Positions 52,266 to 63,296 of a DNA stretch of 64,000 bases are shown here, in pieces. Under the pieces are notes generated by a model that was not told the DNA's origin, searched no databases, and was given only the letters and a program-made list of their open reading frames with translations. The position numbers were made by a program, and so were the translations under genes. The stretch is from Chitinophagaceae bacterium (GTDB lineage Bacteria > Bacteroidota > Bacteroidia > Chitinophagales > Chitinophagaceae): assembly GCA_016715365.1 (NCBI GenBank), contig JADKAM010000012.1:34785-98784 (forward strand), given 5' to 3'. The stretch's first letter is position 1, and every line of letters begins with the position of its first letter.

Positions 52266-52440
52266 GAAAGTTGTTTAGTATTTCAAATGTAATGATTGAT
52301 AAGCCGACCGATTAAGCAGTATGCAACTAATAATAGCTTTTAGCATAGCATGTGTCCAGCATCCTGAATCCAGCATCAACAATCCAGTATCTGATATATT
52401 CCCTTGCTTTTCTTAAATTCGTGTATATTTAAAACAAACC

Positions 52441-52617
52441 ATGCATTTTTATTTGTTATACATCGATCCCGGAAGCGGCAGTTATATTCTGCAGATGATC
52501 ATTGCTGCGGTGCTGGGCGTTAGTTTTTTCTTTAAAAGCTTCTGGTATAATATAAAAGCATTTTTTACCGGTAAAAAAGCAAAGAAGGAAGACGAAGAAA
52601 AAGATAAGGTTGAGTAA
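52441..52617 (+). CDS. Unannotated 58-aa single-TM protein with YIDPGSGS motif
   Basis: Hand translation: MHFYLLYIDPGSGSYILQMIIAAVLGVSFFFKSFWYNIKAFFTGKKAKKEDEEKDKVE. Below the ORF-track cutoff; 32 nt upstream of the NoeA-like gene. Confidence 0.85.
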   Translation: MHFYLLYIDPGSGSYILQMIIAAVLGVSFFFKSFWYNIKAFFTGKKAKKEDEEKDKVE

Positions 52618-52649
52618 ATTGTCAACCTTGTTTAATACCTCAATTAATA

Positions 52650-54026
52650 ATGCAAACCAATCCAGCTTCATACAGAGATAACAGCGGTTTTGTTTTTAAG
52701 CAGAATGATAAAGTGTACCGCTATATCTATGCCAACTATGAACCGCATTATCTGCAATTGATGAACAGCGGACTGTATGATGAACTGGTAAAAATCAAAA
52801 AACTGATTCCCCACGAGGAAATTGCTGATAAAGCAAATTTTGATTTTGCTGATGGAAGAATACTCCTGCCAGTGCAGATTCCCTTTATCAGCTATCCCTA
52901 CGAATGGAGTTTTGATATGTGGAAGGATGCTGCCCTGCTTACCCTGCAGATAGCCCTGGTATCTTTAAAAAAAGAAATGATATTGAAAGATGCCACACCT
53001 TTTAATATTCAGTTCATAAATGGTAAACCGGTTTTTATTGATACACTCTCTTTTGAAAATTACGAAGCCGGCAAACCCTGGATCGCTTACCACCAGTTCA
53101 GCGAATGTTTTTTAGCGCCGCTGCTGCTGATGCATTATTGCCACCCCGATACCAATAAATTGTTTACGGTTTATCCCAACGGTATACCCATGGATGTGCT
53201 GGTGCGTTTGTTGCCAAAAAGTTCGAAGTGGAACATGGGTACATTCCTGCATGTGCACCTGCAGGCAAAATTTGCCCAAAGGACCCTGCGGGCTGGTAAG
53301 CAAAAACAACAAATAAAAACCCAAAACAATTTTTCGAGGCAAAAATTAGAATTGTTGTTAAAAGGGCTCGAAAGTTTTGTGCAAAAATTATCACCCAAAA
53401 ATGTAAAAACAACCTGGGATGATTATTATACCGATACGATTTTAGGCGATGATTATCTCGCCGCCAAAACAACATTGGTAAAATCCTTCAGCAATTTTGT
53501 TGATTATAAAAGCGTGATAGACCTCGGTGCCAACGACGGGCATTTCAGCCTGCTTTTTGTCGACAATAAAAATGTAATTGCTACCGATGCGGATAGTAAT
53601 TGCATCAACGATCTCTATCTTAAAATAAGAAAGGAAAGCATCTCCAATATATTGCCGCTGGTAAATGATCTTACCACGCCTTCACCAGCTATTGGCTGGG
53701 CCAATACAGAACGGGAATCTATCACCACAAGATTAAAAGCCGATATGGTTCTTGCCCTGGCATTGGTACATCACCTGGCCATTGCTAAAAATATTCCTTT
53801 ACATTTTATTGCTGATTGGTTGCGCCCCATGGGGGAGCACCTTATCATTGAATTTGTACCCAAGGATGATGAAAAAGTAAAACTGCTTTTGCAGAACCGT
53901 AAAGATATTTTTGATAATTACAGCCTGGAGAATTTCAGATCCATCTTCGCCGGGAAATATAAAATAGTGAGAGAAGAAAAAGTGGGCAATACCAACCGCA
54001 TTTTATTTTTAATGACACGCAAATAA
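52650..54026 (+). CDS. NoeA-like protein: kinase-like N-terminal domain plus class I SAM methyltransferase
   Basis: SYRDNSGFV, ISYPYEW, LKDATPFNI (catalytic-loop-like), FIDTLSF (DFG-like), VIDLGANDG (SAM motif I), LALVHHL. Confidence 0.78.
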   Translation: MQTNPASYRDNSGFVFKQNDKVYRYIYANYEPHYLQLMNSGLYDELVKIKKLIPHEEIADKANFDFADGRILLPVQIPFISYPYEWSFDMWKDAALLTLQIALVSLKKEMILKDATPFNIQFINGKPVFIDTLSFENYEAGKPWIAYHQFSECFLAPLLLMHYCHPDTNKLFTVYPNGIPMDVLVRLLPKSSKWNMGTFLHVHLQAKFAQRTLRAGKQKQQIKTQNNFSRQKLELLLKGLESFVQKLSPKNVKTTWDDYYTDTILGDDYLAAKTTLVKSFSNFVDYKSVIDLGANDGHFSLLFVDNKNVIATDADSNCINDLYLKIRKESISNILPLVNDLTTPSPAIGWANTERESITTRLKADMVLALALVHHLAIAKNIPLHFIADWLRPMGEHLIIEFVPKDDEKVKLLLQNRKDIFDNYSLENFRSIFAGKYKIVREEKVGNTNRILFLMTRK

Positions 54027-55522
54027 TGGACCTGCTTAAAAAAATACCTTTCTTTTTATTGTTACTGGCTGTGTTCTTTTGCCTGCACGGCAGTGTAGAG
54101 AACTATGGTTACCTCAATGTGTACGAAGTGATGGAAGTGGGCGGCATCATCATTGTATGTTTAGCTGTATCCTTTGGCTTAATATGGCTCATTACTAAAG
54201 ATCACTTCTTCGCAGCATTACTCACATTTTTTATAGCGCTCTGGTATTTATTCTTTGGTGCCATACACGATCTGATAAAAACAACTTCATTCTTACAGTT
54301 CCTGCAATCTTATACGGTGTTGCTGCAGGTATTACTGGTTGTAAACATCCTTGTTGCCTGGTGGTTAAAAAGAAGTAAACAGCTTTATCAAAAACTGTTT
54401 CTTTACCTGAATGTGCTTTTCATTATATTTTGTGTGTCGGATATTGTTTTGCTGGTTAGCAAAGCTGCCACTTATAAAGAGATTGCTTATCCCAATCCGG
54501 TTGCATTCGATCAGTCTAAAGTAACAGCAAAACCCAATGTTTATTTTTTGCTGTTTGATGAATACGCCGGATACAAAAGCCTGAACGATAGTTTTCATTA
54601 TAAGAACGACAGCTTTTACAATTTTTTAAAGCAGGAAAAGTTTGAGGTGTTGCCCACATTTTCCAATTACGATTTTACGCCCTTCAGCATGTCGTCTATT
54701 TTAAACATGCAGTATGTGCCGGAAAATTATAATCGCAATCAGCTTACACAGCCCGATGTACAGCACCGCTTTGGTGAAATCCGCAATGCACAGGTGCCTG
54801 CCATTTTTAAATCGATGGGGTACAGCATTGTAAATAATTCCATCTTCGATATTAAAGGCCACCCGGCACTGTATCAGTCAAACGGATTATTTCCCATTCA
54901 TGCAGAACTGCTCACCAATAAAATATTTCACAACCGCCTTTTAAAAAATATAGGCTGGTGGCTTGTTACCGGCAGGTTTACCATCAATTTTTTAAAGGAG
55001 CATTACATGTACCGCAAAGATGCCTACAATCGCCAGGTAGAAAAAAGACTGCTGGAGGCTGCAGCAACACCTGCAATAAAACCCAGGTTCTGGTATGCTC
55101 ATTTTTTACTGCCGCACGGGCAGTTTTACCGCGATAGTTCCGGGGCTTTGAATTCTGCAGAAAAAATACTCAACCTTAAATACCTGGCCGATAAATCCCT
55201 GTACCTTTCTTATTTAAAATACAGCAACAATATTATTAAGGAGCTGGTAATAAAGATCAACACCAACGATCCGAATGCCATCGTCATCATCATGAGCGAC
55301 CACGGTTTTTACGATTACGATAATCCCGGCGATTACAACCCGTATAATTGTGATAATATCTGCTTTGTAAAAGCGCCCAATAATAACCCGCTGTTTTATA
55401 ATACACAGCTCAGCAATGTCAACGTCTTGCGCCACCTGTTTAATAACCAGTTTGGGCAAAACCTGGCTTATGTAAAAGACAGCACGGTATATGTTATTGA
55501 AGACCCGGCTGTGCTGCGGTAA
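54026..55522 (+). CDS. Membrane sulfatase/alkaline-phosphatase-superfamily transferase (NoeB-like)
   Basis: Five N-terminal TMs, KPNVYFLLFDEY, SNYDFTPFS, YAHFLLPH, IIMSDHG. Overlaps the upstream stop by 1 nt. Confidence 0.8.
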   Translation: MDLLKKIPFFLLLLAVFFCLHGSVENYGYLNVYEVMEVGGIIIVCLAVSFGLIWLITKDHFFAALLTFFIALWYLFFGAIHDLIKTTSFLQFLQSYTVLLQVLLVVNILVAWWLKRSKQLYQKLFLYLNVLFIIFCVSDIVLLVSKAATYKEIAYPNPVAFDQSKVTAKPNVYFLLFDEYAGYKSLNDSFHYKNDSFYNFLKQEKFEVLPTFSNYDFTPFSMSSILNMQYVPENYNRNQLTQPDVQHRFGEIRNAQVPAIFKSMGYSIVNNSIFDIKGHPALYQSNGLFPIHAELLTNKIFHNRLLKNIGWWLVTGRFTINFLKEHYMYRKDAYNRQVEKRLLEAAATPAIKPRFWYAHFLLPHGQFYRDSSGALNSAEKILNLKYLADKSLYLSYLKYSNNIIKELVIKINTNDPNAIVIIMSDHGFYDYDNPGDYNPYNCDNICFVKAPNNNPLFYNTQLSNVNVLRHLFNNQFGQNLAYVKDSTVYVIEDPAVLR

Positions 55523-55557
55523 ACCGCTGCATCTTCAATGTAGGATGGTGGAATGGA

Positions 55558-55696
55558 AACACGGTTGACGCAGATTTTGACGGATGTACACAGGATTATA
55601 TTGCTTCGTAGGATATGGGATTGTTTGAGTACCCAGATTTTTCTGCAAAACAGAAAGAATCCGTGTCCATCTGCCCAATCCGCGTAATCCGTGTTC
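55558..55696. repeat. ACACGG/ATCCGTGT-type 10/11-mer inverted repeat upstream of dnaK
   Basis: acacggttgacgcagattttgacggatgtacacaggat ... atccgtgtccatctgcccaatccgcgtaatccgtgtt. Confidence 0.7.
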
Positions 55697-55727
55697 TATC
55701 CCTGCCAAAATTGCACAAATCCCCAAA

Positions 55728-55774: not shown

Positions 55775-57682
55775 ATGGGAAAGATAATAGGAATTGACTT
55801 AGGAACCACCAACAGCTGCGTTTCTGTAATGGAAGGCAACGAGCCGGTGGTTATTGCAAACGAAGAAGGACGCCGTACAACCCCGTCGGTAGTGGCTTTT
55901 CTTAAAAATGGCGAGCGTAAAGTGGGCGATCCTGCCAAACGCCAGGCCATTACCAACAGCCACAATACCATCAGCAGCGTAAAGCGTTTTATGGGCCGCA
56001 GGTTTGATGAAGTAACCGAAGAAATAAGCCATTGGAGCTATAAAGTGGTAAAAGGTGACAATAATACCGTGCGTATTGACATAGATGGCAGACAATATAC
56101 GCCACAGGAAATCAGTGCCATGGTGCTGCAGAAAATGAAGAAAACGGCCGAAGATTACCTGGGTGCCGAAGTAACCGATGCGGTAATTACCGTGCCTGCT
56201 TACTTTAACGATGCCCAGCGCCAGGCAACCAAAGAAGCCGGTGAAATTGCCGGTTTAAACGTTCGCCGTGTGGTAAACGAACCAACCGCAGCCGCTTTGG
56301 CTTATGGACTGGATAAGGGCGGCAAAGACCATAAAATTGCTGTGTTTGACCTGGGTGGTGGTACATTCGATATCTCGGTTTTGGAACTGGGCGATGGTGT
56401 ATTTGAAGTAAAAAGTACCAATGGTGATACCCACCTTGGTGGTGATGATTTTGATAAAGTAATTATGGATTGGCTGGCCGACGAATTTAAAGCCGATGAA
56501 GCCATCGACCTGCGTAAGGACCCAATGGCTTTACAGCGTTTAAAAGAAGCAGCAGAAAAGGCAAAGGTGGAACTGTCTTCTTCAACAGAAACAGAAATTA
56601 ACCTGCCTTATGTAACAGCGGTTGATGGTGTGCCTAAACACTTAGTGAAAAAATTAACCCGTGCAAAATTTGAAGCATTGGCCGATAAATTATTTGAGCG
56701 TTGCTTGGTACCTTGCGAAAAAGCATTGAAAGATGCCGGTATGCAAACCTCAGAAATTGAGGAAGTAATTATGGTAGGTGGCAGCAGCCGCATACCTAAA
56801 GTGCTTGAACTGGTTGAAAAATTCTTTGGCAAAAAACCAAACCGTGGTGTAAACCCCGATGAGGTGGTAGCCATTGGTGCAGCCATACAGGGTGCGGTCT
56901 TAAGCGGCGATATTAAAGATGTATTGTTGCTGGATGTTACACCACTTAGCCTGGGTATTGAAACCATGGGCGGTGTAATGACAAGACTGATCGACAGCAA
57001 CACCACCATCCCAACAAAAAAATCTGAAGTGTTCTCAACCGCCAGCGATAACCAGCCCGGTGTGCAGATACATGTATTGCAGGGCGAGCGCCCCATGAGC
57101 AGCCAGAACAAAAGCCTGGGTACTTTTAATTTAGATGGCATACCGCCTGCACCACGTGGTGTACCGCAGGTAGAAGTGATATTTGATATTGATGCCAACG
57201 GGATCTTACACGTTACCGCCAAAGACAAGGGCACCGGTAAAGAACAAAAGATACGCATTGAAAGCGGCAGCGGCTTAAGCAAGGAAGAAATTGAAAAGAT
57301 GAAGAACGATGCCAAGGCCAATGAAGAAAGTGATAAGGCAGAAAGGGAAAAAGTTGATAAGGTTAACCAGGCCGACAGCCTGATATTTCAGACAGAAAAA
57401 CAACTGAAGGAATACGGCGACAAGATACCTGCCGATAAAAAAGGCGCTATTGACAGCTCTTTAACCAAATTAAAAGAAGCACACAAAGCACAGGACCTGG
57501 CAGCCATTGATACGGCCATGGCCGAAATGAATGCCGCCTGGACCGCAGCCAGTGAAGATATGTATAAAGCTACGCAGGAAGCTGGTGGTGCACAACCTGG
57601 CGCTGAAGCCGGTGGTGCTGAACCAGAGCCACAGGGCAGTGAGAGTAAAGTGGAGGATGTGCCTTTTGAGGAAGTGAAGTAA
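55775..57682 (+). CDS. dnaK: Molecular chaperone DnaK
   Basis: [43 protein letters not shown]. Confidence 0.99.
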
Positions 57683-57696
57683 AGAACGGAATGTCA

Positions 57697-57715
57697 TCCT
57701 GAGCTTGTCGAAGGA
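57697..57715. repeat. TCCTGAGCTTGTCGAAGGA REP-like unit after dnaK
   Basis: Same family as 27963-27984, 59590-59609, 63200-63219 and, reversed and degenerate, 18571-18591. Confidence 0.7.
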
Positions 57716-57739
57716 TTAGTTAGAATATCTTATTTTATG

Positions 57740-57779
57740 AAGCCAGACTTACTTAATTGTAGGTGCTGGCTTTTTATTT
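57740..57779 (+). terminator. dnaK terminator
   Basis: AAGCCAG(ac)TTAC-ttaatt-GTAG(gtg)CTGGCTTTTT. Confidence 0.75.
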
Positions 57780-57813
57780 AAAAAACTATTTGGTAGCAAT
57801 AAAATTAACCGAC

Positions 57814-58646
57814 ATGAAAATATTTATAAGTTGGTCTGGTGAGAGAAGCCACAAAGTTGCAGAACTGTTGAATAATATGGGTCCAGTGTGTTTTGCAAGC
57901 AGTAAATCCGTGGCTATCTAGTAAGGATATTGATAAAGGATCTTTATGGTTTTCTGAGATTACTACTCAATTGGCTAATACACATAATGGGATTGTTTGT
58001 CTTACAAAAGCGAATGCAAATAATCCATGGGTATTATTTGAAGCAGGGGCTTTAGCAAAAGGCTTATCATCTAATCGAGTTTTTACTTTATTAATTGATT
58101 TAGTACCCAACGATGTTAAAGATCCTCTTGCTCAGTTTAATCATACTTCACCCACTAAAAGCGGAATTTATCAGCTTATAAGAACAATTAATAATGGTTT
58201 AGAGGAGCAAGCTTTAACCGAAAATATTTTATCAAATGTATTTGAAACTTATGCCACAATTTGAAAAAGAGTTTAAAGAAATACTTAATTCTACACCTTC
58301 AGAGGAAGTTACTATAGAAAGACCTAAAGATGAATTACTAGATGAAATATTATATTCTGTAAGAGGGATTGATAAAAGGCTTAGAAAAATTGAAGAACCA
58401 GGGTATTTGAATCCTTATCGTATTCAGTTTATGGGAGGAGGGGGAGCACGTCTGGCATCTCACTTGAGGCCAATTGAAGATCTAAATCTTAGTGTCAGGG
58501 CTTTTAATGTTTTAAAAATTAATAGAATTAACACTATTGAAGAATTAATGCTTACAGATTTGGAGCTTTTAGAAAATTGTGGAACTAAATCGAAGGAAGA
58601 ACTTAAGATAATGATTGAAAAAATAAGGAATAATGATTGGTCATAA
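57814..58646 (+). pseudogene. TIR-domain protein fused to an RNA polymerase alpha-CTD-like domain; two frameshifts (~57875 and ~58248)
   Basis: ATG 57814 MKIFISWSGERSHKVAELL; next frame W(V)QCVLQAVNPWLSSKDIDKG...WVLFEAGAL; third frame PQFEKEFKEI...RPIEDLNLSVRAFNVLKINRINTIEEL...CGTKSKEEL. Confidence 0.82.
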
Positions 58647-58674
58647 AATATCAGCTTCGACGCTGGTGCCCCCA

Positions 58675-58741
58675 CTTCGCCGCTGTTGGCATTACGTAAG
58701 CTCACTCTCGCCGTTGTTGCGCCTCTGGCTAACAACGATTG
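58675..58741. repeat. 67-nt hairpin element, copy 1
   Basis: 62/67 identical to 58971-59037; contains the bulged hairpin CGTTGTTG(c)GCC-tct-GGC(t)AACAACG. Confidence 0.9.
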
Positions 58742-58750
58742 GCTTGGTTG

Positions 58751-58970
58751 TTATTTACTAAAAGTCATTTGACTCCTATTTTTTTGGCAACCGTTTTAAA
58801 AAGCTCCCAGCCTTTACTACCGTTGTAATAAATTATCCTTTTATTTTCTTTTGCAGAACGGGTATAGCCAAAATCATCAATTTGTATGAGGCCATAAATT
58901 CCTGATATTGTAACAGTATTTCCTTTTATAATTGCTGTTAATCGGCATTGCCCAGGAATATTTGAAAACT
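58751..58970 (-). pseudogene. 5'-truncated paralog of the 59047-59460 gene
   Basis: EFSNIPGQCRLTAIIKG...YYNGSKGWELFKTVA aligns with the 3' half of the neighbour. It starts abruptly at the 67-nt element and has a 1-nt deletion near its end. Confidence 0.85.
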
Positions 58971-59037
58971 CTTCGCCGTTGTTGGCATTACGTAAGCCCA
59001 CTCTCGCCGTTGTTGTGCCTCCGGCCAACAACGATTG
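58971..59037. repeat. 67-nt hairpin element, copy 2
   Basis: See copy 1. Confidence 0.9.
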
Positions 59038-59046
59038 AGCTGTTAG

Positions 59047-59460
59047 CTATTTACTAAAAGTCATTTGCACTCCTAATCTCTCAGCAACCGTTTTCAAAAG
59101 CTCCCAGCCTTTACTACCCTTATAATAAATTATGTTTTGATAATCTTTAGGGGATCTTGTGTAACCAAAATCATCAATCTTTATAAGTCCAAAAATACCA
59201 GTAAGTGTAATGCTTTTTCCTTTTATTACGGCTGTTAAACGGCATTGGCCCGGTATTTTCGAAAACTCCCGGGGATAAGTTGTGAGTGTATCTACATTGT
59301 AATTATCCTTAACTATAAAATCCAGCTCAACCAGAGCAATTTTTACTTTTTTATAAATATCAACGCTGTCATTGAGTGTTACAATTATTTTTGTATCCTC
59401 ATTTTTTTGAGCATTAACCAGAAGTGGCAAAAGAAATAATAAAATGAGCAGCAGTTTCAT
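59047..59460 (-). CDS. Secreted hypothetical protein (137 aa)
   Basis: Signal peptide MKLLLILLFLLPLLVNA/Q; conservation with its paralog supports coding. Confidence 0.8.
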   Translation of the reverse strand: MKLLLILLFLLPLLVNAQKNEDTKIIVTLNDSVDIYKKVKIALVELDFIVKDNYNVDTLTTYPREFSKIPGQCRLTAVIKGKSITLTGIFGLIKIDDFGYTRSPKDYQNIIYYKGSKGWELLKTVAERLGVQMTFSK

Positions 59461-59506
59461 AGTTCAATGTTTAATTAAAAGTACAACATAAATATTTTTC
59501 TGCCCC

Positions 59507-59686
59507 CACTGGCGCAAGTGTTCTCTTCCACAATCAACAAATTCAAACGTAATGTTTGTGGGATCACTTGTGTCTACCAGTCCTGGCGGTCCTGAGCGAA
59601 GTCGAAGGGGCACCGCAGTTTACTTTAGCGAAACAATAAAGAGGCATTTATACAATGAGCAACCACAGGCTGCAATAGATAATAGT
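59507..59686. repeat. 180-nt direct repeat, copy A
   Basis: About 164/180 identical and ungapped versus 63117-63296 by manual alignment; contains TGGCGCAAGTG/CACTTGTG inverted REPs and a CCTGAGC..CGAAGG unit. Confidence 0.92.
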
Positions 59687-59738
59687 CCTGCTGCCTTGGG
59701 TGTTCTTAAAGGGGTTTGGTAACACTCACAAATTATTA

Positions 59739-62700
59739 TTACCTCATTAATAAAACTGTCCCTTTTTCGTTATTTTGAAATGAATTTAATTTGAAGTTGC
59801 ATACCCATGTATACGTACCGGTATCGGCCTCTTTACCTTTAAAAGTTCCATCCCAACCCGCTGTAATATCAGTAGTGTTAAATACCACCGAGCCGTATCG
59901 GTTTAAAATGATAAAATTGTATTTAGTTACGTTTCCAAAAATCGCTGGTTTAAAAATTTCATTTTTACCATCATGGTTTGGCGTAAATGCGGTGGGAATA
60001 TAAAATCCTCTGTAACATTCTTTGGGCAGTACCAAAATACTGTCTCTGCCCATACAATTTTTAGCGTCTGTTACCTGTAACCAATACAGGCCCGGTCCGG
60101 AGATTGTAATGATGGAAGTGGTGGAGTTGTTATTCCAGGTGTATTGATTATAATTATGCAAAGGAATAATCTGAAGCGTTGCGTTACGGCATATAGCAGT
60201 ATCGGCAGGTAAAAAATCAGCAGGCCGGGCATTTATATTCCTGATCTCAGTAGTATCTGAGCCCATGCAATTATTTATATCTGTAACTGCTACCCAGTAT
60301 TTGCCAATGCCCGAAACCTGTATTGTACTGGTAGTAGCTGCTGTATTCCATAAATAATTGCTGTAACCCGGGCCGGCATCCAGCATCTTAATATCGCCAA
60401 AACAAATATCCGGGTTCTTATCAAGACGCATAGCCGGTAAAGCATAAACATTTATTACCCGTAGCGTATCTGTGGATGTACAACCGTTTGCAGCAGTGCC
60501 AATGGCAATATAATTTCCGGTTGTAAAAACCGATACCTTTTGTGTATTGGCACCTGTGTTCCAGGCATACTGAATAAAGCCAGCTCCTGCATTTAAAATG
60601 GCGCTATCGCCGCTGCAAAAACTTTTATCCGCACCTAAATTAATTGGTATCGAATGGTTCACCTTAATATAAATGCTGTCATAAGCAAAACATCCCGGTG
60701 TTTTTTCTGCCCTAACAAAGTAAATGGTATCAACCATGGGCTGCACGATCACATTTTGTGCTGTTAGCGAATTTATATTGTATGCCGGTCCCCAGGCATA
60801 ATTTAAAAAGCCACCCGGTGCATTAATATGTACTGTATCTGCATTGCATTTTATCCTGTCTGCTCCAATATTAAAAATAATCGGCGGGGCTGCAGAAACT
60901 ATTATGGTATCGCTTGATGCATTACCGCAGCCATCAACCACATCAACATAATATGTTCCGGGTGTTGTTGCCGTGATTGCAGAACCTGTACCACCCGAAC
61001 TCCACAGGTATGATGCATAGCCGGAACCTGCGTTAAGTACTATGCTATTTCCAGGGCATATAGAAGTGTCTGAACCCAGGTTTACAATGGGCATAGATGC
61101 ATATACAACAACATGAACCGAGTCTGCAAGGTTTGCACAGGATTGTATGCCGGCATAAATATATCCCTGCCACGCCCCATTAAAAATAACCTGGTAGGTT
61201 GAATCATTTATTTGTATAAAAGACTGAACATAAGTAGGGTCGTAATTGAAATTAACATTGCTGCCACATTCCGGGTTTTTATGTGCAGTCAGCAATAACG
61301 GAGCAGATCCGCAAATGGTATCTGTGGAAGCAGTAAGTTTCATGGTATCGCAAAAAGAGGTAGATTGACAGCCAGGAACATAGACGGCACCCGTGTTTAC
61401 TGCCGTGATTGTTTTGTTGCTGCTTTCCACAAAATCGCCAGCCAGTATGGATGCGACACTTAAATTGATGTTGGGAATATAATTAAATGGCTGAATAAGA
61501 GATATTGGTTCATCTACCCCTGTACACGTTGACGAAGTATCTGAGATTTGTAATTTTAAAAATTCCATTTTGGAACCGGGAGCAGCACTGTTGCCCAAAA
61601 GCCTGGTCAATAGGTCAGCACCAGAGGAATGTTTAACCGCATAGTTTTCAAAATTCACAAATTCATCTACATATTGTCTTTTCCGTTCCTTTAATATAAC
61701 ATCATCATTAAACTGCAGGTAATGGATACCCGGGTTCGTTCCTCCGGGCGACATAGTAAATAATCCCTGTGTTATCCGGGAAAAGAGAGCATTTGATTGT
61801 ACTCAGGTTGCCCTGAACATTGTTTCTTATACAAAAGGCCTTTACAAAATTCAGGTTTTCATCAAACTCGCATACAGCTTGCTGGTAGTAAAGAGGAGCG
61901 GTGCCAAAGAACCCGTAACACCGCCCACTGATGCGGTAATGGCCATTGTTGAGTCTCACCATCGGATCGGTACCTAAAAAACTTAAATTGCATGCCTGGG
62001 CATCTGAAATGCTGTAGTATTTTGTTGCAATGGTATCGCCGTTTGTTTTATTGATCCGGTAAATGCCTACCCATGTAAAAGTGCTCACTGGTTATCTTTC
62101 CAAAGGAGATAATTTCATTCTGTAAAATGTCAATCCCAAATACATTCTCAACATAATTCCCATTGTTGGGATTATACATTTTACTCCATAAGATATTGCC
62201 GTTATTTTGATCCAGTTTGTTTATATTTCTTCCCGTAGCCCAATGCGGCCCGGTTAAATAAATATCGCCTGTACCCGGATCTTCTTTCATTTGCTGAACA
62301 TAATAATAATCGGCACTTCCTGTACCCCCGGTATCCAAACAATAGATTTGTAGGTTTTACTCCATATGATATTTCCGGTATTGTCAGTTTTGGTTAGTAA
62401 CAGGTCCTCATTACCACTAACAAGATTATTTGTTTTACCCACCAATATTAAATTGCCGTTTTGTAATTCAAGGGTTTTGTAATAATAGATAGTACTGTAT
62501 TCAACATGATTTAAACTGTCGTATGTTTTCCCCATATAACATTCCCGCTTTCATCGGTTTTCAAAACATATGCTTTATTCTGAACAAAACCGGTGGTGTA
62601 ATCAGAATAGGTTCCGGCAATAAGCAGCATGCCATTTGAAGTTTTACTAACTCCGTTTACATAAAAGTGAACAGAATCCTTTCTTAGAAAAAATCTGCCC

Positions 62701-62960
62701 GATGAGTCATAACAGGTAGTGTTTTGAAGAGAATTTAAATGAGGTACAGATGCTTTTTCAATTTGCAATTTGGTAACCTTATCAACTTTACCTGAAAAGT
62801 CCGGCTTATTTAACCGGTTTTGCGGTAACTGGGTCATAAAAACCAAAGAATCAAGCTGTGCAGGGTTTAACTTAAACGAAGCATTATTTTGACATTGTAC
62901 TGATTGACTGCAACACAAATAAATGCACAGTAAAAAAATGGTACGTGTTATAAATATGTT
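59739..62960 (-). pseudogene. T9SS type-B cargo protein (propeller-like N-terminus, repeats, gliding CTD) broken by four frameshifts
   Basis: ORF pieces 62511-62978, 62287-62535, 62048-62338, 61708-62088 and 59739-61754 join at ~62530, ~62336, ~62093 and ~61760. CTD YIPTAFTPNHDGKNE...GTVLLMR. Confidence 0.85.
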
Positions 62961-63116
62961 CATCAGAAAAAATGTCAATTATTACTGCCACAATATTAAA
63001 TAATTTATGTTATAATATTTTTATTTGTTGCAGGGTTCTTCCAAATGTTAAACCGCTTTAAACATTATGATGGCTCCATTGGCCACTCACTGGCAAGTGT
63101 TCCCTCCCACAATCCT

Positions 63117-63296
63117 CACTGGCGCAAGTGTTTCCTTCCACAATCAACAAATTCAAATGTAATGTACCTGGGATCACTTGTGTCTACAAGTCCTGGCGGT
63201 CCTGAGCGTAGTCGAAGGGGCACCGCAGTTTACTTTAGCGAAACAATAAAGATGTTTTTACACAATGGGTAACCACACACTGCAATAGATAATAGT
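63117..63296. repeat. 180-nt direct repeat, copy B (plus a partial tandem copy at 63088-63114)
   Basis: See copy A. Confidence 0.92.

Follow-up and report, generated by a model that had tools for sequence, protein, structure and literature searches.

The question raised by a short and broken gene in the genome of a Chitinophagaceae bacterium is whether a TIR domain has truly been joined to a copy of the C-terminal domain that the alpha subunit has in RNA polymerase (alpha-CTD) and, if so, what such a protein is for. The gene lies at positions 57814-58646 on the forward strand of a 64,000-nucleotide stretch of contig JADKAM010000012.1 (assembly GCA_016715365.1), the whole of which is called the window here, and it consists of three overlapping open reading frames (ORFs) in three frames that jointly encode a product of 277 amino acids (aa). 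A reading made earlier from the letters alone (the sequence-only reading) had proposed two frameshifts and a product of about 277 aa once these are repaired, and an intact database protein of 277 aa confirms this repair.

The TIR-alpha-CTD protein and its intact copies

The TIR-alpha-CTD architecture is real and conserved. An intact protein with both parts had been named by the sequence-only reading as the thing to search for, and in a homologue search covering 5.8 billion proteins at least 57 intact homologues were found that encode both parts in one gene and share the whole architecture at 52-68% identity. The named sources are all Bacteroidota (Niastella, Chitinophagaceae, Runella, Flavobacterium and Saprospir-type metagenome-assembled genomes, MAGs), and the fusions span Chitinophagales, Cytophagales (Runella), Flavobacterium and Saprospir- records.

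The TIR domain occupies aa 1-135 (57814..58219, on the forward strand as are all parts of the gene), starts with an ISWSG motif and carries Glu76 in the motif PWVLFEAG. It is recognised by TIR_2 (PF13676, precomputed on the intact homologues), by the PADLOC model TIR-TM and by structure comparison. Both ORF piece 1 (57814-57921, containing MKIFISWSGERS) and ORF piece 2 (57893-58264, containing NPWVLFEAGALAKG) match TIR-TM, piece 2 at 7e-40, and piece 2, with the fragment as query, reached 3.7e-6 and 27.9 bits against TIR_2, for which the cut-off is 28. The intact protein matches TIR-TM (PDLC03016) at 6.4e-62 over aa 1-195, corresponding to model positions 1-200 of 293, and the C-terminal third of the model is replaced by the alpha-CTD in the window protein. 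Matches of the ORF pieces to ThsB of the Thoeris system were marginal (E 0.007-0.045). An AlphaFold2 model was built on 57 homologues (mean predicted local distance difference test, pLDDT, 77), and in a Foldseek comparison with the PDB its TIR part matched SPARTA TIR-APAZ, TcpB/BtpA, PdTIR, SARM1, AbTir and SpbK (9phb_A) with a probability of 1.0, the best matches being the SPARTA structures 8isy_B, 8i87_C and 8spo_I. Glu76, within PW(I/V)LFE(A/S)G, is invariant in all 57 alpha-CTD-tailed proteins and in 56 of 56 relatives with other tails, and in a weak alignment (E=0.11) it falls on the catalytic glutamate of the 'SSWCLDEL' motif in the plant TIR 7xoz. The TIR domain with ISWSG and a catalytic-type glutamate in WVLFEAG, as first read from the letters, is thereby confirmed, the glutamate being the same in all 113 relatives.

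The TIR domain is followed by a helical stalk (aa 136-194, 58220..58394) that is modelled as two helices (136-160 and 172-194) and carries the invariant residues E178, I179, L180, R184 and E194. Next comes a disordered, hypervariable spacer of variable length (aa 195-219, 58395..58469), with pLDDT below 50 for residues 199-211 and a GGGG at 58434-58445. The helical linker and GGGG hinge that had been suggested earlier correspond to these two parts.

The tail (aa 220-277 and the stop codon, 58470..58646) is an alpha-CTD-type helix-hairpin-helix domain. ORF piece 3 (58236-58646, containing GGGG and then IEDLNLSVRAFNVLK) matches PF03118, RNA_pol_A_CTD, at 6.4e-11 (42.3 bits, cut-off 23.8), and the tail matches alpha-CTD sequences of the PDB at 1.7e-5. 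The model places four helices at 220-275 with pLDDT of about 90, and Foldseek aligned them with 9dvt_A (TM-score 0.76, root-mean-square deviation 2.0 A, 42% identity) and also with 3gfk_B, so that the alpha-CTD fold, on which the fusion claim had been made to depend, is upheld by both model and structure search. The tail is 40-49% identical to the alpha-CTD of RpoA from its own genome, the true rpoA being on contig C11. It keeps R229, N232, K235, G257, K259 and S260, which we take to be the equivalents of R265, N268, K271, G296, K298 and S299 in E. coli RpoA numbering, and has a valine in place of the C269 equivalent; the arginine that had been singled out from the sequence as the R265 equivalent is R229. 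Fold, sequence homology and flexible tether are thus shared with the alpha-CTD of RpoA. Unlike RpoA, the window protein has lost 3 residues ahead of the second hairpin, around the '287 determinant', and is without the GLxFGM end; NCBIfam rpoA models match residues 216-271 only and far below their cut-offs. The protein cannot be an RNA polymerase subunit, since it has no alpha N-terminal domain.

The 277-aa read-through is 99.6% identical to the intact protein P0001, the sole mismatch being T21 of P0001, where N was assumed in the read-through. P0001 is encoded on a 1.45-Mb contig of MAG GCA_016721065.1 (the sister MAG) and also by contigs of five sequencing runs that are independent of each other. 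Pairwise alignments with the intact comparison copies (L001-L006, of which L001 is the sister MAG) place both frame breaks relative to six intact copies. The first, at 57872..57877 (~57874) in the TIR domain, is one surplus base with an adjacent substitution in the region of codon 21. The second, at 58250..58255 (58253) in the stalk, is a two-base deficit at the Trp147 codon, made up of two neighbouring 2-base runs that are each one base shorter. Compared with four of the run contigs over 1.0-1.45 kb, the window has identical flanks and differs only at ~57874, at 58253 and by one silent change. In their flanks all six intact copies agree with the window fully or almost so. An intact gene exists in the same population whether the frameshifts are real or not.

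Programmed frameshifting was rejected, since what sets the window apart from the intact copies is indels and not a slippery site common to all. Of the two options given by the sequence-only reading, inactivation of a toxic gene and assembly error, the second is favoured: by comparison with the intact copies, the frameshifts are probably mistakes in the consensus of a long-read assembly, close to the end of a contig. The genome assembly consists of 12 contigs and 4.26 Mb, a contig number that suggests long reads. The gene lies at C12:92598-93430, and all six frame-breaking indels of the window fall within the last 7.5 kb of the 100,023-bp contig, in a stretch that holds dispersed and tandem repeats. 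Four of these are single-base indels relative to L001 that split a CHU_C / type IX secretion-signal protein of about 1080 aa (59739-62978, reverse strand) into five overlapping ORFs. In the remaining ~58 kb of the window no broken genes were detected. Bactofilin, SprT-like and other adjacent ORFs were considered as further broken genes and rejected, being separate intact genes.

A genuine pseudogene, in which the two frameshifts here and the four in the CHU_C gene would show a costly or toxic stretch of accessory DNA in decay, is the less probable explanation. The assembly itself contains the breaks, they affect two accessory genes side by side among intact housekeeping neighbours, and TIR effectors are potentially toxic, all of which would fit decay. 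Against decay stand the identity of the flanks to those of the intact gene on four independent metagenome contigs, the position of all indels close to the contig end among dispersed repeats, and the finding that small indels relative to L001 are mostly run-length changes that occur in non-coding spacers as well as in coding sequence. The CHU_C fragments are moreover 99-100% identical in protein sequence to the intact copy of the sister MAG, leaving little time for four independent indels. The product of the broken 136-aa ORF has no record in other assemblies by an exact-match look-up, but this is a weak test.

A TIR-stalk chassis with exchangeable tails

The TIR domain and stalk together form a chassis of much wider distribution than the fusion itself. 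At 50-71% identity over aa 1-194 it was found in 339 of ~185,000 species genomes, among them Proteobacteria, Firmicutes, Cyanobacteria, Planctomycetes, Verrucomicrobia, Spirochaetes and others, and it is present on prophages and on 74 IMG/VR viral contigs; among these 74 viral loci no alpha-CTD tails were found. Within a sample of 401 genomes of the phylum, the chassis is present in 12 and the alpha-CTD form in the window's genome only. Neither the chassis nor the alpha-CTD form was found in four species of the same genus.

The closest validated relative is the TIR subunit of P2_AC1, a three-gene 2TM-1TM-TIR locus that was shown to give E. coli C protection from lambda, LF82_P8 and P2, and for whose TIR a messenger role was proposed by the authors (Rousset et al. 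2022, PMC9122126). The AC1 TIR protein is the seed of the PADLOC model TIR-TM (2.7e-118), and the two genes upstream of it are '2TM-TIR' and '1TM-TIR' of PADLOC. It is homologous to the window protein in TIR and stalk (40% identity over aa 1-179) and is likewise borne by phages or mobile elements, but has 315 aa, another helical C-terminus and two membrane partners, 2TM and 1TM, whereas the window protein has an alpha-CTD tail and no partners. Closer in form is gp47 of the lambdoid phage mEp390, a single gene of 272 aa with 50% identity over aa 1-194 and a short tail on a variable spacer, which is a terminator-flanked moron on the reverse strand between the Q and holin genes. Unlike the window protein it ends in a small three-helix-bundle tail of no recognisable family, and its hosts are Proteobacteria.

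A conserved partner was not found for the chassis: no neighbour family is common to more than 5 of 77 related loci, and no 1TM or 2TM homologues (PDLC02977, PDLC02978) were found in the window's genome, in a search without a positive control. The solo TIR gene is therefore counted as stand-alone. No description of a TIR-alpha-CTD protein was found in the searchable literature. The claim that no described system has this architecture thus stands for the alpha-CTD tail and falls for the chassis, which is a catalogued defence family. What is new is the tail; what is known is TIR-based phage defence on a catalogued 2TM-1TM-TIR chassis, and the system is not a categorically new one.

The two ends of the protein evolve very differently. 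Mean pairwise identity among the 57 fusions falls from 77% in the TIR domain and 62% in the stalk to 13.5% in the spacer, and is 31.5% in the alpha-CTD tail. To judge from these sequences, the TIR-stalk part is a nearly frozen engine and the C-terminal module is exchangeable and fast-evolving. In a tree of alpha-CTDs the RpoA branches measure 0-0.05 and the fused tails 0.1-2.2, the fused tails evolving 10-50 times faster than RpoA CTDs. Nine or ten fusions fall inside the RpoA clade and have the full 'GLTFGMDL' end (P0024, P0029, P0042, P0045, P0054, P0066, P0068, P0070 and P0075), and the other fused tails, that of the window included, stand on long branches outside it. On the tree of the chassis, tail type (alpha-CTD versus three-helix) requires about 5 changes, compared with about 38 when labels are shuffled. 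A single origin of the alpha-CTD tail on the chassis is conceivable from these trees.

The tails carried by the chassis include the alpha-CTD, a three-helix bundle, a GAF-like domain (in a 598-aa form) and others. The commonest sister tail is the three-helix bundle, modelled by AlphaFold2 at pLDDT of about 90, for which Pfam gave no match and a profile search of the PDB gave designed repeat proteins only. A mimic of sigma region 4, which would have extended the theme of decoys made from RNA polymerase parts, was considered for this tail and is unsupported, the best Foldseek neighbours being RRE/HTH-type domains (HTH, helix-turn-helix) at E ~0.7.

Alpha-CTD tails on other defence effectors were not found, either among second alpha-CTD copies in the 401 genomes or in a search with the tail only. 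Second copies are present in 17 of the 401 genomes, where they are fused to pyruvate phosphate dikinase (PPDK), sigma-4-like, DUF1801-like and Zn-ribbon proteins or are free-standing. Examples are a 966-aa PPDK, an odd fusion for a metabolic enzyme, with a C-terminal alpha-CTD (68.6 bits, GLHFGMD end; G400:C1:1818000-1825000) and a 190-aa protein in which a sigma-4-like HTH at the N-terminus is followed by a coiled coil and, at the C-terminus, an alpha-CTD (G363:C6:128000-130500). The tail-only search yielded a 342-aa protein, P0121 (L226 1062-2090), with four to five tandem alpha-CTD repeats (PF03118 1e-49). Compared with RpoA, its repeat unit is the closer match to the window tail, the repeat ends (..NWL) resembling the end of the window tail (..NDWS). 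The genes around it are an HTH_17 gene, a pair for type III restriction-modification, DUF2971 and an SNF2 helicase.

What the tail may sense

Our preferred reading, to which we assign a probability of roughly 0.55, is that the protein is a one-gene abortive-infection NADase belonging to a family of solo TIR, helical stalk and exchangeable tail, with the alpha-CTD tail as the sensor of the trigger. In uninfected cells the protein would be inactive. Upon phage infection the tail, held out on a flexible tether much as RNA polymerase holds its own alpha-CTDs, would engage the trigger, and this engagement would cluster TIR domains by way of the stalk and thereby form a composite TIR active site; NAD+ would then be cleaved and the infection aborted. 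Ligand-driven clustering of TIR domains that switches on NAD+ cleavage is known from SPARTA, TIR-SAVED and SpbK. SpbK of Bacillus subtilis ICEBs1 is a single-protein TIR NADase triggered by a phage protein, and it resembles the proposed model in that one polypeptide senses a phage protein, assembles TIRs and cleaves NAD+. The TIR folds match, but beyond this fold the sequences are unrelated, and SpbK has a different sensing part and no host-derived domain. SPARTA TIR-APAZ, which provided the best structural matches, is likewise an NADase activated by ligand-induced oligomerisation; it is however a two-protein and guide-RNA-dependent system, and the window protein has neither an APAZ-like part nor an Argonaute partner.

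That the protein takes part in defence at all is plausible from homology, mobility and distribution. The sequence-only reading had called it a candidate anti-phage effector, and the chassis is indeed homologous to the protective P2_AC1 locus, phage-borne and sporadic. Recurrent neighbours of chassis genes include type II Thoeris (ThsB 8e-72, ThsA 1e-113), Old/AriA-like ATPases and integrase. The expected defence-island context accordingly holds for some loci, with Thoeris or Old/AriA-like neighbours, and not for others, which have housekeeping surroundings.

The nature of the trigger is best approached from the residues that the tails keep. The tail is best kept in its N-terminal half, P-I-E-D/E-L-D/N-L-S-V-R-x-x-N-x-L-K, and in RpoA the corresponding stretch carries the first DNA hairpin and an acidic patch in contact with sigma region 4. 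The residues that contact DNA in RpoA (the '265 determinant') are present in the window protein apart from C269 but poorly kept among the fusions: the equivalents of R265 and N268 are kept in 38/57 and 40/57, and those of G296, K298 and S299 in 9/57, 22/57 and 9/57. The most RpoA-like tails, which are 46-61% identical to the RpoA CTD of the window's genome (48% for that of E. coli RpoA), have Q, G or P in place of R265 in 5/9 and another residue in place of G296 in 5/9. In true RpoA, R265 and G296 are essentially invariant. This poor conservation and the loss of R265 argue against UP-type DNA binding or ADP-ribosylation of R265 as a common trigger, and the residue pattern of the tail appears to fit a protein-contact role better. 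The R265-centred mechanism that had been suggested earlier, by ADP-ribosylation or by DNA binding, does not suit the family, in which R265 is kept in 38 of 57 members and lost in five of the nine RpoA-like tails.

We therefore favour a phage protein over DNA as the trigger. More specifically, the host alpha-CTD may be the normal docking site of the trigger, which would then be a phage protein of several subunits (a transcription activator, for instance, or a factor that modifies alpha) and the tail an integrated decoy; this proposal, although the likeliest for the trigger, is a tentative one that we rate as somewhat unlikely in itself. More speculative still is a generalisation by which the tail is a domesticated RNA polymerase module wired to a TIR suicide enzyme and the tails of solo TIRs generally imitate host targets of phage takeover factors.

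A sensor of DNA, the main alternative, has several features on its side but is unlikely. According to this explanation the tail would bind the minor groove of A/T-rich, UP-like DNA, and copies aligned on phage DNA, as it enters or replicates, would polymerise their TIRs and trigger NAD+ cleavage. The window protein keeps R229, N232, G257, K259 and S260, conservation of the tail is highest in the N-terminal half, and SPARTA, the top fold match, is known for nucleic-acid-triggered TIR oligomerisation. The weak structural neighbours of the commonest sister tail are HTH-type domains as well, although those fold matches are insignificant (E ~0.7 or worse). Against it, the second-hairpin contacts are lost in most members and R265 in a third of them, as well as in five of nine RpoA-like tails. 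The host genome is 60% A+T, and a sensor of A/T-rich DNA would risk self-activation. Finally, the tail evolves far faster (0.1-2.2, compared with 0-0.05 in RpoA CTD) than a DNA-reading module under purifying selection.

The TIR might alternatively convert NAD+ into a nucleotide signal on which an effector encoded elsewhere, or some target in the cell, acts, the alpha-CTD only localising or regulating the enzyme. In favour of this, the validated relative works with two membrane proteins and a messenger role was suggested by its authors, and some family members adjoin type II Thoeris genes. It is nevertheless improbable here. There is no conserved neighbour in the 77 loci, the search of the genome for a 1TM or 2TM homologue found none (although it was made without a positive control), and the solo form as a self-contained, terminator-flanked phage moron implies that the protein works alone. 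The window locus also differs from Thoeris itself, for it has no adjacent ThsA, none being found among the neighbours in the window, and its ThsB similarity is marginal.

Equally improbable is that the protein serves no immunity but is a transcription-linked regulator or competitor, whose dimeric stalk would present two alpha-CTDs to UP elements or activator surfaces, a role that other free-standing fusions of the alpha-CTD may have too, and whose TIR would be a module for interaction or nucleotide processing. Such a role would suit the many loci in housekeeping surroundings and the fact that alpha-CTD copies of Bacteroidota are fused to unrelated proteins (PPDK, sigma-4-like, Zn-ribbon and tandem repeats). 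However, neither the catalytic-type glutamate nor the TIR core varies between phyla, members of the family are carried by phages and have a patchy distribution, and the chassis is shared with a proven defence locus; unrelated tail folds swapped on one chassis also fit a sensor better than a dedicated transcription role.

Several points weigh against the preferred reading of a one-gene abortive-infection NADase with a sensing tail. The validated AC1 TIR works with two membrane proteins and is a proposed signal maker, and because of this NAD+ depletion as the mode of action is an extrapolation. A strict decoy should stay host-like, yet most tails have diverged far from RpoA, and the tail in the window keeps five of six DNA-contact residues, which fits binding to DNA. 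Model confidence is moderate (pLDDT 52-74) for the stalk and for parts of the TIR domain. The genomic context is often non-defence, the gene following dnaK here and ftsZ or two-component genes elsewhere, and in Haemophilus/Aggregatibacter (L118, L124 and L125) a solo TIR gene has by eye apparently been inserted between nrdA and nrdB (genes for ribonucleotide reductase subunits), which for an accessory gene would be an uncommon place to land.

The alpha-CTD of RNA polymerase is a classic target of phage transcription takeover. The alpha-CTD variant is thus the one place where the sensor tail of a solo TIR has an identifiable origin, and it offers the first interpretable sensor domain and makes solo-TIR sensing testable, with phage activators and alpha-modifying enzymes as candidate triggers. 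If the decoy explanation is true, the protein would be a bacterial counterpart of the integrated decoys of plant NLRs, and the hypervariable tails of solo TIRs would become readable. The likeness is purely conceptual: the idea in both cases is that an immune protein with a built-in copy of a host target is set off by the pathogen factors directed at that target, and some of the plant proteins use TIR signalling, but the window protein has a different chassis without NB-ARC or LRR. Should the tail bind DNA instead, a minimal TIR DNA sensor would have been defined. Either outcome bears on what one-gene TIRs, an abundant group, sense and on whether bacteria use host-derived decoys as plants do.

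Surroundings of the gene

The TIR gene is preceded by dnaK (55775-57682), and its neighbours at this locus are dnaK and small secreted proteins on the opposite strand. It had been described as the first gene after the dnaK terminator, and folding supports this. The intrinsic terminator of dnaK (57739..57782, forward strand) has a stem of 14 bp, interrupted by one bulge, and a loop of 6 nt, with UUUUUAUUU coming after the stem-loop; the hairpin (57739-57773) with its U-run folds at -18.9 kcal/mol (z=-4.96), a value equalled by none of 200 shuffles, and it separates dnaK from the TIR gene. A simple terminator scan had missed this hairpin. The AT-richness noted by eye is likewise borne out by the GC content, which is 0.30-0.34 in the TIR gene compared with 0.395-0.40 in the genome, and dnaK has 0.46. 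Of the supposed island, the low GC content and the patchy presence hold, but borders are not definable: when they were sought from congeners, no synteny was found downstream of dnaK at 72-79% DNA identity.

The sister MAG differs from the window upstream of the gene. Between a cupin gene and dnaK it is without a 3.4-kb segment (52295-55698) whose two genes encode 458 aa and 498 aa, the larger product looking by eye like a multi-pass membrane protein. The sister MAG also lacks 233 nt comprising the 3' end of dnaK, the terminator and the spacer (L001 5990-6030 compared with window 57581-57815), and its dnaK ORF (611 aa) consequently runs into the TIR start codon. These 233 nt were either truly deleted or lost through faulty assembly of that MAG; the dnaK-TIR arrangement of the window is supported by two Logan contigs.

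Downstream of the gene, 58647-59460 holds a partial tandem duplication, in which an 88-aa ORF (58765-59031, reverse strand) is a truncated paralogue of a 137-aa signal-peptide protein (59047-59460, reverse strand), and both ORFs are preceded by a GC-rich repeat of about 110 nt. The sister MAG has a single copy only, and both are present on the Logan contig L002. A dispersed repeat, about 190 nt long, is found at 59497-59690 and at 63114-63296, with 11 copies in the genome, several of them near contig ends, and it contains a short repeated ORF with SLVSTSPGGPERSRRGTAVYFSETIK.

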